Origin: a virus
Taxonomy: Duplodnaviria; Caudoviricetes
Virus record (IMG/VR): IMGVR_UViG_3300012001_000021
Coordinates: 1 to 40,370 of that record
Length of the DNA stretch: 40,370 bases
Reading direction: 5' to 3' (one strand)
Both the position numbers and the translations under genes were made by a program. Position 1 is the stretch's first letter. Each line of letters opens with the position of its first letter. Under the pieces are notes generated by a model, which worked only from the letters and a program-made list of their open reading frames with translations, made no database searches and was not told the origin of the DNA. Below, piece after piece: positions 1 through 40,370 of this stretch.

Positions 1-77
1 TTGTTAACAAATATTGCGTATTTGTCGTCCATCTCACTATATTCTTTCGCAGAGATATAAAGATTCTCCATTCTAGT
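1..77. repeat. Terminal direct repeat copy 1 (circular assembly overlap)
   Basis: 1-77 is identical to 40294-40370; the MCP reading frame is continuous across the join. Confidence 0.97.
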
Positions 78-902
78 AAGGGTTAAAGCCTCGCTTGTTG
101 CATCAAACTGAGGAGTCCAGCCAATTACACTACGTGCAACTCCCGCATACTGTGAAGTACCGGTAGTTGATGATAATGCTGCTCTGACACCTGTAAGCTC
201 TGCTGTCCCTGCTCCAGCACTATCTCCATCAAGGATGTAAATAGCTGAACCAGCACTGTTAGCAACTGAGGAGGTAGTATTAACTGTCGTACCTGAAACA
301 GATGCGATAGTTGTTGTACCTGCTGCTGCTGAACCAATACCGATAATTTGTCCTGCGACTAGATACTTATTAGCAGCAATGTCTCCATTGACTGAACCAT
401 AAGTATTAAGTACACGAGTATCATCAATAGCTGAGGATACATTTCGGATTGTGAATGCTGTACCACTTGTTGATCCTGCAACTTCTGAAACGACACCGAA
501 ACCATCTCCGTAGAGCTGTCGGTTAACATTTCTTGCGAAGTCTGAGGCAAGGGATGTAGCTTGGAATGATAAAGCCCTAGCAACGGATTGTTTAGTTGCA
601 CTGGTCGCATCGATAGTCAACTTTTGAATATCGAACGTGCCTGTTAACAGCTTAACCTGCGTATTAGCAGAACCAATTGTTGCACCTCCTGAAACCAGTT
701 TAGAACCACCGTTAGCAAGGTTTGTGACGCCTCCTTGACGGGAAGTACGAATAGGAGCATAGAAAGCATTGTTAAACATTTCAACATCTGCATCCCGCTT
801 CATCTGATCCAGTAAGATTGTTTTCTTAGGAAAGTTATCTTTGACGTAAGGCATGATTACTGTACGTAATGCACCCGAAACGTCGGAAAGTGAAACTGCC
901 AT
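1..902 (-). CDS. Major capsid protein, 5' part (continues at 40293 down to 39951; 414 aa total)
   Basis: Missed by the ORF track. ATG at 902 with SD GAGGGGTGA; reads MAVSLSDVSGALRTVIMPYVKDNF...DFARNVNRQLYGDG...ALTLTR, in frame with MENLYISAKEY; lies directly after the scaffold gene. Confidence 0.9.
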   Translation of the reverse strand, partial: MAVSLSDVSGALRTVIMPYVKDNFPKKTILLDQMKRDADVEMFNNAFYAPIRTSRQGGVTNLANGGSKLVSGGATIGSANTQVKLLTGTFDIQKLTIDATSATKQSVARALSFQATSLASDFARNVNRQLYGDGFGVVSEVAGSTSGTAFTIRNVSSAIDDTRVLNTYGSVNGDIAANKYLVAGQIIGIGSAAAGTTTIASVSGTTVNTTSSVANSAGSAIYILDGDSAGAGTAELTGVRAALSSTTGTSQYAGVARSVIGWTPQFDATSEALTLTRMENLYISAKEYSEMDDKYAIFVN

Positions 903-967
903 ATTATAAATCACCCCTCTTTCCCCTTATATTGTCCGTATTAATACGTAAAGGCATAAAAACAATC

Positions 968-12576: not shown

Positions 12577-12807
12577 TTAATTTTTAAGCTTTACTCTCTC
12601 ATGTTTAGCTAGTGTTTTTCTAATAAGTACATCAATCTTACCCATTTTCTTTAAGTCAGCCTTTGTCCTAGGTTTATTAGCAGCTTGGGGAATTACTTTC
12701 TCTTCTCGTCCACAATTTAGACACATCATTGTATATCCATAGGTAGGATCGTAATGAATATTGGTTTCAAAGCTGCGACATGTGAGACAAAGTAAGGCAA
12801 AAATCAT
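12577..12807 (-). CDS. Small Zn-ribbon protein
   Basis: CLTC...CLNCG. Confidence 0.6.
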   Translation of the reverse strand: MIFALLCLTCRSFETNIHYDPTYGYTMMCLNCGREEKVIPQAANKPRTKADLKKMGKIDVLIRKTLAKHERVKLKN

Positions 12808-13280
12808 CGTTTTAAATTAATATAAGAGGCTTTTTTACCTTCTAGTGCTAGTTTAGTTACTTCTTCTAGCTGTTTACTGTCTATAGGCCAACAAGATTGA
12901 ATATTCTCTAGTTGCTGCATAAACTTATAATCATCAGTTGCATCATGTGAGTATCCGTCATGAGTGTAATCTTTTCCTCTACCTGAACCTACCAGAATAA
13001 CAGGTATAGACTCATGATTTATATACGTTCTGATCGTCTCAAATCCTCTATAAAGTAAAAATGGTGTTATTGAATAACAGATAGGCTTCTTACCAGATAG
13101 CGCTAAACCTACACCTATATCTAGCAGTGTCTGTTCAGCGGCACCTACATTAATAAATCTATCGGGAAAGTCATCTCGTATCTTATCCCAAAGCCCAAAG
13201 CCTAGATCTGCAGTAACTACAATGATTGAATCATCTTTAAGCATGGCTTTATATAATAATTCAGCAAAATATTTACGCAT
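12804..13280 (-). CDS. Transketolase-like beta subunit (pyrimidine-binding domain only)
   Basis: TADLG, FPDRFINVGAAEQ, GLALSG, RGFETIR, DGYSH; lacks the transketolase C-terminal domain. Confidence 0.9.
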   Translation of the reverse strand: MRKYFAELLYKAMLKDDSIIVVTADLGFGLWDKIRDDFPDRFINVGAAEQTLLDIGVGLALSGKKPICYSITPFLLYRGFETIRTYINHESIPVILVGSGRGKDYTHDGYSHDATDDYKFMQQLENIQSCWPIDSKQLEEVTKLALEGKKASYINLKR

Positions 13281-13635
13281 GATTACTCCCTAATAAATCA
13301 ACCATATATTTAGAGAAATTATTACTCATATAATCCATTGTTTTATCGTAGGGCTTGTACCACTTCTGCCACTTGTTCTTAATAAGAAAATCTATAAATA
13401 CCTTAAACTCCTTACGGGGGAATGCGTGAGGTATAATATCCTCGATCTCTTGTGGGTGCTGCAAGTAATAATCAATCATATAGCTATCCCAGATAGCCTT
13501 GCACCAACATTTCTTGCCCTCACGCTCATAGTATCCGTCCATAGCTTTATATGATTTAAAATCACGCTTAAAGAAAATGCAGGTATTAAGCGCTTGATCT
13601 AGTTCTTGCCAAAATATTGTTGCTTCTTTTCTCAT
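13273..13635 (-). CDS. Hypothetical protein
   Basis: 120-aa ORF overlapping both neighbours. Confidence 0.7.
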   Translation of the reverse strand: MRKEATIFWQELDQALNTCIFFKRDFKSYKAMDGYYEREGKKCWCKAIWDSYMIDYYLQHPQEIEDIIPHAFPRKEFKVFIDFLIKNKWQKWYKPYDKTMDYMSNNFSKYMVDLLGSNHA

Positions 13636-13769
13636 ACTCGCTCCTCTACTCCAAATTTATCCTTAAGCTTTCTAAAAATATCCTTTTTAACTCGTGCTAC
13701 TTCTTTCTTAGTTAGGTTTCTATCAGTCGCCTGAAATATAATGCGATATGTTCTAAATTCTTTTGTCAT
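13632..13769 (-). CDS. 45-aa protein resembling the C-terminal half of the PheRS-beta FDX-ACB domain
   Basis: MTKEFRTYRIIFQATDRNLTKKEVARVKKDIFRKLKDKFGVEERV; ATGA overlaps at both ends; SD GAGGAGG. Confidence 0.6.
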   Translation of the reverse strand: MTKEFRTYRIIFQATDRNLTKKEVARVKKDIFRKLKDKFGVEERV

Positions 13770-13939
13770 AACTTTTTAAACTCCTCCTCATTAAGCATAT
13801 AAATAACTCCTGGTGGACAGTTTGGATTAGAGTAAACTGGATTCTTGCCGATAAAGCCGATAAGATCCTTTTCTGCTACGTGCATAGAGTTTTTAAACAA
13901 TGTCTCAAGCTGCTCGAGTGTTAAATTATTCTTTTTCAT
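13766..13939 (-). CDS. 57-aa protein with capsid A-domain-like motif
   Basis: MKKNNLTLEQLETLF...GKNPVYSNPNCPPGVIYMLNEEEF; ATGA overlaps at both ends. Confidence 0.6.
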   Translation of the reverse strand: MKKNNLTLEQLETLFKNSMHVAEKDLIGFIGKNPVYSNPNCPPGVIYMLNEEEFKKL

Positions 13940-14691
13940 TTTAATATCTCCATCGCTTCTTTGTGCTGTTCCTTGGACATTACAAGATAATGACCAATCT
14001 GACCCTTAAGAAAAGGAATATAATCAACATTAGTTTGGATTAAATGAAGGACGGGTGCCCTAGTATAATCTTTAAAATGCTTAATATTCTCCTTAAGAAG
14101 ATGGTGGGGTGTTGTAGTAGAAACATTCATGCCAAAAGCAGCAAAACGCTCTGATAGATCAACATGACTAGCAAATGGATGTCTCCATACATTTGTATTT
14201 AATATCTCTCCATAGGCTCCCCAGCCATTAAAATTACAAAATATTTTAAGATTAGTTAATTTCTGTTCAGCTATTACTCGTAAAGCTTCCCAAATACTCC
14301 CCTCAGCACATTCTCCATCTGAAATCAGACAGTAAACATTCTTTGATCTATCCGCTAATGCCATTCCGACTGCTATTCCTAGACCATGACCTAAGCTACC
14401 ACTTGAGCACCAGATACCGTTCTTCATATCCCTATTTGGGTGCACTCCGTGTAAATCAAATAATTCCTCAGCAGTTAATCCCGTATTTGAACTTCCATAC
14501 TTCTCTAATATTACATACAGAGCAAGTCCCGCGTGTCCGCTAGATAAAATGAAAGGTTCATCCTGTTTCTTAACGTGGTAAATTTCATCAATAATATCTA
14601 CAGCACCCAAGCACGAGCCCAGATGAGATAAGCACTTTTTATAAGAAATATCTATAATTCTTCGTTTTAAGTCCCTATTCGTTATTGGCAT
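13936..14691 (-). CDS. Transketolase-like alpha subunit (ThDP-binding N-terminal domain)
   Basis: HLGSCL, FILSSGHA, GSLGHGLGIAVGMALA, SDGECAEGSIWEA...N. Confidence 0.93.
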   Translation of the reverse strand: MPITNRDLKRRIIDISYKKCLSHLGSCLGAVDIIDEIYHVKKQDEPFILSSGHAGLALYVILEKYGSSNTGLTAEELFDLHGVHPNRDMKNGIWCSSGSLGHGLGIAVGMALADRSKNVYCLISDGECAEGSIWEALRVIAEQKLTNLKIFCNFNGWGAYGEILNTNVWRHPFASHVDLSERFAAFGMNVSTTTPHHLLKENIKHFKDYTRAPVLHLIQTNVDYIPFLKGQIGHYLVMSKEQHKEAMEILK

Positions 14692-15505
14692 CTACCATCC
14701 CTCCTATAATATCCGGTAACTTCTCTTTCTGTTTCCAGCCTAAAGATTTAATAAGTGTTGGATCAGCTACCCAGTCGTTAGTATCATACGAGCGCGGAGA
14801 ACCCAAACTTACCGCCGCAGTCTGTCCGACTGCTTTTTCTACCAACGCTCGTATGACTGAGTTAGTGGTTTTCTCTCCCGTGCCGATAGGGATTATCTTA
14901 CCAGCAAGAGAGGAGGCGTTATCAATAATTAACATCAAAGCATCAATAAAGTCATTTACTCCGATAAAGTCATGAGTCGGCTCAGCACTAAATGGCATCT
15001 CTTTACCCGTCTTGCAGCTCTCAATAAGACGAGGAATTAAGTGAATACGATGCTCTCCCTTGCCAATAACGGTATATGGTCTAACTGAGACAATAGGCTT
15101 GCCAAAGAGATCATAATACGCTTTACACAGTCTTTCCCCCGCTGCCTTCGTTGCGCTATAAATCGTTTCATTTGCCAGAGTTACTGATGAGGAGGAAAAA
15201 TTAACTAGTAGTTTAAAAGGAATATCTTTTGAGGCCTGAAGTAAATTAACCGTACCACCGATATTAGTGTTAATGGTCGTTACTATATCTTCCTGCGTTG
15301 ATAGATTACCGAATGCCGCTAGGTGAAAGATTACATCAGGTGACTTTAGTTGAAAGTAAACCTTAAGTAGATCGGGTCGTTGTAACATATCCCGTTCAAT
15401 AGGCCACACTATCCAGCCTTCTTTTTCTAGTCTATCTACTAAGTAAGTGCCTATAAAGCCCTTTGATCCCGATACACAAGCCACCTTTTTAACTACTTTT
15501 ACCAC
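14675..15505 (-). CDS. NAD-dependent nucleotide-sugar epimerase/reductase (extended SDR)
   Basis: GSKGFIG, VIFHLAA, FSSSS, YSATK, HDFIGVND. Confidence 0.9.
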   Translation of the reverse strand: MVKVVKKVACVSGSKGFIGTYLVDRLEKEGWIVWPIERDMLQRPDLLKVYFQLKSPDVIFHLAAFGNLSTQEDIVTTINTNIGGTVNLLQASKDIPFKLLVNFSSSSVTLANETIYSATKAAGERLCKAYYDLFGKPIVSVRPYTVIGKGEHRIHLIPRLIESCKTGKEMPFSAEPTHDFIGVNDFIDALMLIIDNASSLAGKIIPIGTGEKTTNSVIRALVEKAVGQTAAVSLGSPRSYDTNDWVADPTLIKSLGWKQKEKLPDIIGGMVDANNE

Positions 15506-15913: not shown

Positions 15914-16096
15914 TTATAACTTAACGATAAAACCTACCGCAAAGATAATGAGTAAGCAAACGATTAATAAGACGATTTTAAATGTCTCATTTGCCTTAGG
16001 GTCTTTAACTAATGTGTCAATTAGTATATTAAAGAAAAAATAAATAAAGAAAGCGACCACTAAACGAACAACGATATTATTCATATCAAGTGTCAT
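15914..16096 (-). CDS. Small two-TM membrane protein
   Basis: Two hydrophobic helices; SD GGAGGAGGTGA. Confidence 0.7.
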   Translation of the reverse strand: MTLDMNNIVVRLVVAFFIYFFFNILIDTLVKDPKANETFKIVLLIVCLLIIFAVGFIVKL

Positions 16097-16284
16097 AAAT
16101 AATCACCTCCTCCCAATCTCCTACTAGCTTTAAATGTCTCTTTAAACGCTTGTGGTATCTTACCCGTTCCTGAGCAAGTAGGGCATTTAATAAGTCTTAT
16201 TGAGGGATGTTTAAAACGAGGAGTAGCAGGCTTAAAATGTAAGCAACGGGTACAGTTTCTTTTTGCTTGATGTATGCAAGTCAT
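16093..16284 (-). CDS. Small Cys-rich protein
   Basis: CIH..CTRC and CPTCSGTG. Confidence 0.6.
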   Translation of the reverse strand: MTCIHQAKRNCTRCLHFKPATPRFKHPSIRLIKCPTCSGTGKIPQAFKETFKASRRLGGGDYL

Positions 16285-18795: not shown

Positions 18796-19138
18796 CTAAC
18801 TCCTTTAGCTCTATCTCTACTCGTGGGTTATCTTTGTCTATTCTGCTTATCATAGTTACTGAATCAATATATTTACTGGTGTCTTGTGTAATAAAGATGC
18901 CTTTGAGGCCGTCAATATAAGGTTTTGCAGCAATATTATCCGGGTCATAAGGCCGTTTGTCAAAAAACACAGTGATTTTAACGGTAATGAGAGTCTTAAA
19001 TAGCCCCTTTGTTTTAAGTGTCGAGTACTTGATAAGGCTATGAACTCTTACCGCCTCTCTGTTTCGTGCTGACCAATGCATGCCCGACCAGTACTTATTC
19101 CAAGACAAGGGGCGTTCATTAGGCAGTGTTATAGTCAT
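18782..19138 (-). CDS. rusA: RusA-like Holliday junction resolvase
   Basis: PLSWN...DPDNIAAKPYIDGLKGIFITQDT...NPRVEIEL. Confidence 0.75.
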   Translation of the reverse strand: MTITLPNERPLSWNKYWSGMHWSARNREAVRVHSLIKYSTLKTKGLFKTLITVKITVFFDKRPYDPDNIAAKPYIDGLKGIFITQDTSKYIDSVTMISRIDKDNPRVEIELKELDGNN

Positions 19139-19278
19139 TTACTCAATTTAAAATCATCCATAAAGGTGTCTTCGTTAATAAAATAAACCATATCTTTAGG
19201 ACAATCTATCCTCGTATGTACCATAATCCCATTAAGCATATTGTGGTTAAGTAAGTTAGTAGGTGGTAAACAGTCCAT
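19135..19278 (-). CDS. 47-aa protein with capsid A-domain-like motif
   Basis: MDCLPP...LNGIMVHTRIDCPKDMVYFINEDTF; stop overlaps the rusA start; start uncertain. Confidence 0.5.
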   Translation of the reverse strand: MDCLPPTNLLNHNMLNGIMVHTRIDCPKDMVYFINEDTFMDDFKLSK

Positions 19279-19823: not shown

Positions 19824-20009
19824 TTATTTATCGTCAACAATAGCGTCTAAGCCTCTCATTTCTGACTTAGTCCCATTTCCAATAAGCATTTCCTTAAGCA
19901 TCTTCTCTATAGTCTTATCCATCTGTCTGCTTATTGACCAAGGTAGTTTGAATCCTTTACCATGAACCCACCAATTTAATGCAAACAAAAAACTTCTGAT
20001 TATCCTCAT
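19824..20009 (-). CDS. 61-aa protein with capsid spine-helix-like C-terminus
   Basis: ...MDKTIEKMLKEMLIGNGTKSEMRGLDAIVDDK. Confidence 0.6.
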   Translation of the reverse strand: MRIIRSFLFALNWWVHGKGFKLPWSISRQMDKTIEKMLKEMLIGNGTKSEMRGLDAIVDDK

Positions 20010-35081: not shown

Positions 35082-35549
35082 CTAATTAAGCTTGGCATAC
35101 TCCCCATAATATTTGAGAGCAGCGTTATTATAAGCAGTTATAGCATCCTCTCTTTTTATAAAACTTCCTAGATGATGCCTCAGCCTATTAACAACAATGT
35201 AAGCCCTCCACTTACCACTATCTTTCCTGAGATGTACCCCTCTATATCCTGAGGTATTATTTTTTTGAGGGTTCTTATTATGATTATTTAAGTGATAAGT
35301 AGTGAGTCTTAAATTTAACTTAGTACAGTTCAATTTATCAAGATTAATATGATCTATATATTCACCTTTCTTGACTCCTAAGACTTCTCTATGAAGAAAG
35401 ACTGTATTTCGCTTTTTAGTTAATGGGTCTGTGAAATTACGAACTGCATAGCCAGTATGGTGATAATACCACTTATGTTTGCTTAACCTCTCAAAATCAT
35501 CGCTGTCAACTAAAACAACCCTATTTTGAGTTAATAGTATCTTCTTCAT
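35082..35549 (-). CDS. HNH-AP2 homing endonuclease
   Basis: LHREV...IDHINLDKLN...NLR; AP2 domain SGYRGV...KWRAYI...HLGSF. Confidence 0.92.
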   Translation of the reverse strand: MKKILLTQNRVVLVDSDDFERLSKHKWYYHHTGYAVRNFTDPLTKKRNTVFLHREVLGVKKGEYIDHINLDKLNCTKLNLRLTTYHLNNHNKNPQKNNTSGYRGVHLRKDSGKWRAYIVVNRLRHHLGSFIKREDAITAYNNAALKYYGEYAKLN

Positions 35550-36699
35550 AAACTTCCGCTTGAACCTTCTCTAAGAAAGGGATAAGATGTGTCTTCATTA
35601 CATACTCCGTGTCATATTGCATAATACTTAGCCTACAAAATACACCCATTTTCTTACGATCATCTTTAAAAATTTGCTCCATATGCATATACAGAGAATG
35701 ACTATCTACAACACCCACATATGAGAGTAGTGGTGTGAATCGTTTATAAAGCACCTCTGTAAGATATCCATTTTTGCCTGGCTCGATTAACTCTGTCATT
35801 GAGGTAAAGTCATTTGCAATTACTGGTATTCCACAGGCCATAGCTTCAACAATAGGAACACCCCACCCCTCGGACACTGAGGGAGCTAGTAAGCAATCAA
35901 AGGTAGAATAAATCTTAGCCATATGCTCTTTACTGATCTTGTAGGCTAGATCATAAGGAGGAGGATAGAAAACTACACTTGGATTAAGACCTAAAAACTT
36001 GACGTATTCATTAATAGGGAATCCACCGGGATTATCAACCGCTACATGAAAGTAGATAGCAGATTTAGGATGCTCTCTGTGAAAGACAGCAAAGGCATCT
36101 AATACCTCTTGAAAGGACTTACGAGGAGGATTATCCTTATTAGCCGCCACCATACCAAATAAGAAAACGTCTTTAGGAATACCAAGTAACTCCCGCATCT
36201 CATCTTTCTTATATGGCTTAAATATCTTAGTATCTACCATAAGAGGAAGATAGGTAGAATGGACACCGTTATCGGCGAGTTGTTTTTGAGCGAACTTTGA
36301 ATAGGCTAGAATACGATAGGCCATTTTAGCCCGTTGTAAAACAGCAGGGGGAATAGGATCATGATCAACGGGAAGCCATGGAATCCAGCGCTTAACATGC
36401 TGAAGGGCATTAGGATCTAGTGTCCAGATGTCCTGATTAGAAAGAGTGATATCAGTATTGAAATCCTTACCATGCTCAATCATGGCATCTAACCCCCAGA
36501 TATCGGCTATTCTAGGATAGTGCTTAACACCCTCAAGCTCTACAATCCCTCCCTCTAAGCCGTAAAAGTCTATATGTGCCTGAGTCCAGCCATCTTTTGT
36601 TAAGGCTGGTAAAACGTACGCTTGCTGCTGAGCATATCCCGAATTTGACCAAAAAGCATTGGAGTTCCATAAAATCTTTAAACGTCTATCTTTCTTCAT
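35521..36699 (-). CDS. Glycosyltransferase, GT4-like (GT-B)
   Basis: SGYAQQ, VDTKIFKP, RKS, SVSEGWGVPIVEAMACGIPVI. Confidence 0.92.
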   Translation of the reverse strand: MKKDRRLKILWNSNAFWSNSGYAQQQAYVLPALTKDGWTQAHIDFYGLEGGIVELEGVKHYPRIADIWGLDAMIEHGKDFNTDITLSNQDIWTLDPNALQHVKRWIPWLPVDHDPIPPAVLQRAKMAYRILAYSKFAQKQLADNGVHSTYLPLMVDTKIFKPYKKDEMRELLGIPKDVFLFGMVAANKDNPPRKSFQEVLDAFAVFHREHPKSAIYFHVAVDNPGGFPINEYVKFLGLNPSVVFYPPPYDLAYKISKEHMAKIYSTFDCLLAPSVSEGWGVPIVEAMACGIPVIANDFTSMTELIEPGKNGYLTEVLYKRFTPLLSYVGVVDSHSLYMHMEQIFKDDRKKMGVFCRLSIMQYDTEYVMKTHLIPFLEKVQAEVYEEDTINSK

Positions 36700-39950: not shown

Positions 39951-40370
39951 TTACCCCGTCTTTTGAACACCACGTGCGTTAGCACCAGGAGCGATACATA
40001 AAACGTTCATGAACCACACCATAGTTGCTTGGTACGTTAGATAATCCGGTCGTCTTAACAGACTTCCTGATTCTGGGTTTTCAGCCCAATTCAAATCTGA
40101 TACCTGAGCCATGATCCAAGAGTCCATATTTAAAATAAGGACTTCGCCATCTGGGACGTCGTAGTCCAAAAAGACTCCGACAGTACCAGCGCCAGCGGCA
40201 AACTCTAGACCTGACCAGCCTCCGAGAAGTTGAGTTGTATTAACTGTTCTTCGCATAGAGGTAAGGATGTCTCCATATTTACGATAAAGTGTTTTGTTAA
40301 CAAATATTGCGTATTTGTCGTCCATCTCACTATATTCTTTCGCAGAGATATAAAGATTCTCCATTCTAGT
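39951..40370 (-). CDS. Major capsid protein, 3' part
   Basis: In-frame continuation of 902..1; GGWSGLEF...VFLDYDVPDGEVLILN...NVLCIAPGANAR. Confidence 0.9.
   Translation of the reverse strand, partial: TRMENLYISAKEYSEMDDKYAIFVNKTLYRKYGDILTSMRRTVNTTQLLGGWSGLEFAAGAGTVGVFLDYDVPDGEVLILNMDSWIMAQVSDLNWAENPESGSLLRRPDYLTYQATMVWFMNVLCIAPGANARGVQKTG
40294..40370. repeat. Terminal direct repeat copy 2
   Basis: Identical to 1-77. Confidence 0.97.

Follow-up and report, generated by a model that had tools for sequence, protein, structure and literature searches.

Here we report a family of 12 short proteins, among them a 57-aa phage protein (P0001), for which profile comparisons support an origin in a major capsid protein that lost an internal stretch. 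Two short capsid segments, a helix and a hairpin, can be aligned with P0001, and approximately 30-40 residues that separate them in capsid proteins are missing from it. P0001 is encoded by an accessory gene inserted into a conserved gene pair of the window, by which we mean the whole 40,370-nt stretch of phage DNA that was analysed.

The 57-codon gene and its genomic locus

The gene lies on the minus strand at 13766..13939, and its product consists of a predicted helix (residues 8-18), a short linker, a predicted hairpin (25-37), a CPPG-x-x-Y-x-x-N motif, and a C-terminal helix. A Shine-Dalgarno-like GGAG (13948..13951, minus strand) is located 8 nt ahead of the ATG, and the ORF overlaps both of its neighbors via ATGA, its start sharing bases with the stop of the upstream gene. 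The capsid gene is about 13 kb away, and the gene for the terminase large subunit lies about 3 kb downstream of P0001. An earlier sequence-only reading of this DNA had described an intact, coupled gene far from the head module, and both parts of that description are confirmed. A public soil-metagenome contig covers positions 12800-15500 with no differences; no variants are thus present within the gene in this single contig, which may be the source of the DNA itself.

A 655-nt insert (13281..13935, minus strand) carries three coupled ORFs, with P0001 in the lead, and lies between the two halves of a transketolase, the N-terminal half on the upstream flank (13936..14691, minus strand; PF00456, E 8e-13) and the C-terminal, pyrimidine-binding half on the downstream flank (12804..13280, minus strand; PF02779, E 3e-21). 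The third gene of the insert is a 120-aa ORF (13273..13635, minus strand) with no significant family match. The remaining gene, a 45-aa ORF (13632..13769, minus strand), resembles the extreme C-terminus of the phenylalanyl-tRNA synthetase beta subunit (FDX-ACB), with E 2.9e-6 and 28.1 bits to PF03147, which is below the cut-off of 31.1, and E 0.0017 to positions 761-798 of 798 in TIGR00472. From these similarities it is possible that a host-protein-fragment mini-gene is coupled here to the capsid fragment.

The transketolase halves are spaced by -23 to +34 nt in six of seven related phages and by 150 nt in the seventh (G005), where the gap holds an unlike 54-aa ORF (L020 15554-15718, minus strand) whose presence suggests that the junction is an insertion hotspot for small genes. 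As a candidate homolog of P0001 this ORF scored 4.6 bits and was not counted. A search of five records from related phages that share this capsid type (39-80% complete) did not recover P0001, and across 112 loci with 13,070 ORFs the family HMM detected no other short family member. A foreign base composition was considered and rejected, the gene having 35% GC vs 35-37% in its flanks. P0001 is an accessory gene inserted into a conserved gene pair.

Together with an NAD-dependent epimerase the split transketolase forms a module (window 12804-15505, minus strand) that is kept in all seven related phages examined (G001-G005, L002, and L113) and probably serves sugar-nucleotide synthesis; a glycosyltransferase-like ORF was noticed by eye at 35521-36699. 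The genome gave no match to PF00589, so no tyrosine integrase was found; it has a ParB-like ORF, and lysogeny by a serine recombinase or in a plasmid-like state may occur. Since no tyrosine integrase was found, a role in lytic growth fits better than a prophage-type defense.

A family of short homologous proteins

We searched 1.84 billion cluster representatives, setting no limit on length, and obtained 10 homologs of P0001 at E up to 0.001, which are 55-92 aa long except for one of 132 aa; full-length capsid proteins are absent from the 10. One further homolog came from a profile search, so that the homolog search proposed in the sequence-only reading gave 11 short proteins, or 12 members with the query, at 39-54% identity to P0001. 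The homologs are known as protein sequences, and their 90% clusters hold one or two members each without an informative name. All 12 members start alike, end a few residues past the motif, and share invariant G28, P34, P42, and G44. Contig-edge capsid fragments were rejected as the source of the homologs because the members share a common start and an internal deletion. The family also carries a shifted glycine and extra conserved residues that are absent from capsid proteins, and three of its 12 members (P0127, P0130, and P0134) have a Cys-rich N-terminal extension that resembles the zinc fingers of DnaJ and anti-TRAP. Similar stand-alone zinc-finger ORFs occur in the window, for example at 16093-16284.

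The family profile matched none of 401 bacterial genomes from one phylum, and a word-indexed search with P0001 matched only P0001 itself. DNA searches for homologs returned three loci, two of them chance matches in a non-coding frame and the third failing the family profile. In the ESM Atlas, two family members had as their first match a cluster whose 56 hypothetical proteins are 47 aa long, 43% of them having PF20911; the first-match scores of 0.89 and 0.87 are under 0.9 and are taken as leads only. This cluster is possibly a larger family of capsid mini-proteins.

Single-sequence comparisons and structural model

The window edge splits the major capsid protein gene of the phage into an N-terminal part (3..914, minus strand), which ends just past the helix motif, and a C-terminal part (39951..40370, minus strand), which carries the hairpin motif. 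Both parts match NF033394 and phrog_14242, a genome search with NF033394 recovered these two pieces only, and the virus record has a direct terminal repeat of 77 nt. In this lineage, capsid proteins have 414-427 aa and are approximately 90 residues longer than the Mx8-like capsid proteins; the middle region of the lineage (window 3-914) is rich in Gly, Ser, and Thr and looks like an inserted domain.

On its own, P0001 resembles the capsid protein of its phage no more than chance would give. It aligned with the capsid protein of its own phage at 6/24 in BLASTP (E 0.033, not above chance) and at 2.5% in hhalign, and it was not among the matches listed for the profiles of 120 capsid proteins of that lineage over 2,719 ORFs. 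It had no PHROG match, and its matches to Pfam T4_MRH (E 0.065) and to an NCBIfam aminotransferase (E 0.023) were taken as chance. Single members gave no capsid-family match in PHROGs (0/11), Pfam (0/11), or NCBIfam (0/12), and neither P0001 nor the 11 homologs matched NF033394, a model of 311 positions with a curated cut-off of 80 bits. Searches of cultured phages by tblastn were at chance level for P0001, with capsid genes in two of 14 records, and for P0126, with a capsid gene as the top one of four; for P0128 the 30 matches listed of 214 fell in a ribonucleotide reductase region. Two further mini-ORFs of the window, described below, gave no match in the same search (47-aa ORF) and no capsid gene among five (61-aa ORF). 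No capsid protein was among the matches listed in PDB sequence searches with P0001 and with the family profile, nor in a PDB search with the profile of the capsid lineage of the phage.

The structural model of P0001 built from the 12 sequences (pLDDT 67, pTM 0.36) is not compact and contains helices at 8-18 and 51-56, with strands at 25-30 and 33-37 between them. Fold searches in BFVD, in the PDB, and in a wide search returned nothing significant, the starting point being a low-confidence model that excludes nothing.

Profile comparisons with capsid proteins

The family profile aligned with eight capsid proteins of the phage's own lineage in two segments separated by a 37-column gap (hhalign 45.9%, E 2e-4). 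After trimming, it gave 22.5 against a 120-sequence capsid profile, a value reached by one of 150 column shuffles. Against four capsid proteins it gave 92.7% (0/150 shuffles), a figure that is biased since these proteins were picked via the motif. For five cultured Mx8-like capsid proteins, which had been selected on similarity in other parts of the sequence, the result was a weak 18.4 (4/200 shuffles) with the same motif aligned. The capsid protein of Nostoc phage A1 (AND75579, identical to PDB 7f38_A) gave 26.7, which no shuffle of 200 attained. Within the 7f38 protein the helix motif (191-202) ranks first of 354 positions and the hairpin motif (262-286) first of 341, and the A1 capsid protein is first among 73 ORFs in the fetched parts of that genome.

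We then represented the helix and the hairpin by ungapped profiles placed 5-70 residues apart and applied them to 207 ORFs of at least 150 aa from the window phage and related phages, the split capsid gene of the window not being among them. The eight capsid proteins, which are mutually related, took ranks 1-8 with segment limits that were set after the alignment had been viewed; these ranks were unchanged when P0001 was left out, and none of 1000 shuffled profiles reproduced them. The helix segment alone did not single out the capsid proteins, which had ranks 6, 8, and 10 among the best 12, and in the Manatee-Spring, Mx8-like, and L008 proteins its profile did not fall where expected. The ungapped profile also missed the five Mx8-like capsid proteins, which carry a loop insertion. 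A pattern search of IMG/VR gave 50 matches, of which three were confirmed, all three inside capsid genes of 337-341 aa. Among HK97-fold capsid proteins (NF033394 type, capsid_maj_Podo, Mx8-like; A1), the helix and hairpin motifs of the 7f38 protein match the family profile in the same order, and the same two places are matched in the phage's own lineage; both motifs lie in the C-terminal third of the capsid protein. In the HK97 fold, we take both kept segments as parts of the axial (A) domain.

The two segments differ in the capsid proteins that they resemble most. The helix is closest to the phage's own lineage and to A1, ranking first in 113 of 114 located proteins, whereas the hairpin scores 47.5 and 50.1 in the Manatee-Spring type (chosen by motif) and 34.8 in Nostoc phage A1 against a median of 25.3 in the own lineage. 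Since the helix is nearest to the own lineage and A1 and the hairpin to other lineages, the capsid donor was probably an unsampled relative rather than the phage's own capsid gene; a direct copy of the latter was rejected because the hairpin scores favor other lineages.

Profile or structural similarity to capsid proteins was the check that the sequence-only reading had put forward; profile similarity was found (45.9%; ranks 1-8 of 207), while the structural comparison gave nothing with a low-confidence model, so that this reading stands on the point where it could have fallen. Its interpretation is partly supported: capsid ancestry with an internal deletion holds, and the two roles that it offered, a decoy or an inhibitor of competing phage assembly, are candidates. 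Its two quoted motifs do occur in the split capsid gene of the phage. Its statement that P0001 parallels the phage's own capsid protein with about 30 residues removed holds at the level of the family, in the two-segment alignment with its 37-column gap and shuffle controls, and does not hold for the single sequence, where the likeness is at chance; the choice of the own protein as the parallel likewise suits the helix and not the hairpin.

P0001 is not itself a capsid protein, from which it departs in length, domains, and position. HK97-fold capsid proteins have 320-430 aa and P0001 has 57, with all other domains absent; only two short segments align, and the full set of HK97 elements (N-arm, E-loop, P-domain, and A-domain) is lacking. 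Unlike the capsid gene, its gene is outside the head module with scaffold and portal, and the product would be unable to build a shell.

Other capsid-like small ORFs

Two further small ORFs of the window, picked out by eye ahead of any search, resemble capsid proteins. The first (19135..19278, minus strand; 47 aa) has the same hairpin motif as P0001, and major head protein is its sole PHROG match (E 0.042). It aligns with the 7f38 protein at 42% over 36 aa (pairwise E 1.2e-6), more closely than P0001 does, and scores 14.5 bits on the family HMM; no clear Shine-Dalgarno sequence was seen in the 22 nt upstream. The second (19824..20009, minus strand; 61 aa) weakly resembles a different conserved capsid segment in its C-terminal half, with E 0.053 to phrog_9953, E 0.077 to NF033394 positions 115-148, and 2.4% in hhalign. 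The best PHROG match of both is a major-head family, as against none of 42 other ORFs. Against a capsid profile of seven proteins, two of them motif-selected, P0001, the 47-aa ORF, and the 61-aa ORF take ranks 1-3 of 39 small ORFs, the score being clear for P0001 only.

Discussion

The major capsid protein is a common trigger of host immunity and is hard for phages to mutate. We propose that P0001 acts as a decoy against sensors that bind the capsid A-domain, such as Avs7, Avs8, and Avs10, by binding without activating them, and we hold this reading at somewhat less than even likelihood. It is favored because the accessory gene keeps only two motifs of the sensor-bound A-domain region. P0001 would be produced during infection, would fold by itself or upon binding, and would sit in the pocket with which a host immune sensor binds capsid protein, while being too small to switch the sensor on, much as DSAD1 mimics the tail tube protein on DSR2. 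According to Lee et al. (10.64898/2026.01.04.697583), three receptor families converge on the capsid A-domain; Avs7, Avs8, and Avs10 bind its penton/hexon-forming face, target monomers, and use large shape-matched interfaces, and Avs7 reads shape, burying approximately 3,700 square angstroms over the P-domain, A-domain, and E-loop. Avs7, Avs8, Avs10, and Dsr1, which are themselves host sensors and bind the A-domain face of the capsid monomer (10.64898/2026.01.04.697583), are the candidate targets.

DSAD1, likewise a small protein made by a phage, imitates a trigger from the virion, the tail tube protein, fills the sensor pocket without activating the sensor, and blocks DSR2 (PMC10973363); the same mode is proposed for P0001. 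DSAD1 differs in its tail tube trigger, in its sensor, and in having demonstrated activity, whereas the function of P0001 is proposed only. Both the precedent of DSAD1 for trigger mimicry and the two further capsid-like small ORFs in the genome would speak for the decoy reading. P0001 has the trait expected of a trigger mimic, being a small accessory phage protein that resembles an immune trigger, and unlike DSAD1 it would be recognizable by its sequence as a descendant of that trigger. Against the decoy reading, a 57-aa piece may be unable to reproduce the large interface of Avs7, or to bind at all. The likeness of the hairpin to foreign lineages would fit an anti-competitor role equally, and the neighboring gene resembles a host housekeeping domain, so the phage may recycle fragments for other reasons.

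The last point belongs to an alternative that we consider unlikely, in which a recycled capsid fragment has taken up work outside capsid sensing and assembly, such as that of a small module binding a host protein; its ancestry would then be silent on the target. Such a module would be in keeping with the adjacent gene that resembles a tRNA-synthetase tail, with the Cys-rich, zinc-finger-like N-terminal extension of three of the 12 members, and with the shifted glycine and extra conserved residues that set the family apart from capsid proteins. What it does not account for is the same hairpin motif occurring twice in the genome in otherwise dissimilar ORFs, a recurrence suggesting that the capsid surface itself is kept.

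In a further alternative, P0001 would be a dominant-negative poison of assembly that caps the A-domain contacts of capsid monomers from co-infecting phages of other lineages, blocks capsomer closure, and spares the phage's own head. We regard this as distinctly unlikely. The own lineage is indeed less close to the hairpin than are an abundant other lineage (an estimated 2,100 or so IMG/VR stretches) and Nostoc phage A1, but the helix is like the own lineage (first in 113 of 114 located proteins), which carries a risk of self-poisoning, and a small fragment would have to outcompete a very abundant protein. There is a precedent in the defense Tab, a phage gene that blocks the virion assembly of other phages (PMC10884400). 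Tab is a prophage product, while no tyrosine integrase was found in the genome studied here; it is also directed at the assembly of tails, is paired with an anti-Tab, and is not described in its abstract as a capsid fragment (PMC10884400).

It is improbable that P0001 is what remains of a capsid gene that lost its function, or that it resembles capsid proteins by chance without sharing their ancestry: chance-level single-sequence scores, the empty fold searches with a weak model, and segment limits picked after the alignment was viewed would agree with it, but 12 divergent proteins agree in length, start, deletion, and invariant residues, the capsid ranks hold with a profile that lacks P0001, and none of the 401 bacterial genomes matches the family profile. 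Very improbable is an accessory factor for assembly of the phage's own head, either a minor capsid component or a transient chaperone, which the two-segment homology to the own capsid lineage and the shared transcription direction upstream of the terminase genes would suit, but whose gene sits in an insert outside the head module and was found neither in the five related records of the same capsid type nor among the short ORFs of 112 loci.

With respect to the decoy reading, a wider proposal, which we hold as tentative and less likely than not to be right in full, is that phages delete the middle of capsid genes and so obtain several minimal A-domain mimics from different lineages and segments, a decoy set against Avs7/8/10, Dsr1, CapRel, and Thoeris. 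Escape of phages by mutation is described in the available portion of the capsid-sensing literature, and capsid-derived inhibitors are not described in that portion (10.64898/2026.01.04.697583). We found no description of internally deleted capsid mini-proteins in the full-text literature, which covers few subscription papers, including the accessible part of a November 2026 review (PMC13728456).

If poisoning of assembly were the true function, P0001 would represent a new way for phages to sabotage one another's heads. With the family it could be tested cheaply and directly whether fragments of their own trigger serve phages as decoys, and which capsid surface suffices for sensor binding without activation. 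If the wider decoy proposal is true, the 12 family members would form a natural panel of inhibitors, available as they are, for mapping the minimal capsid epitope.
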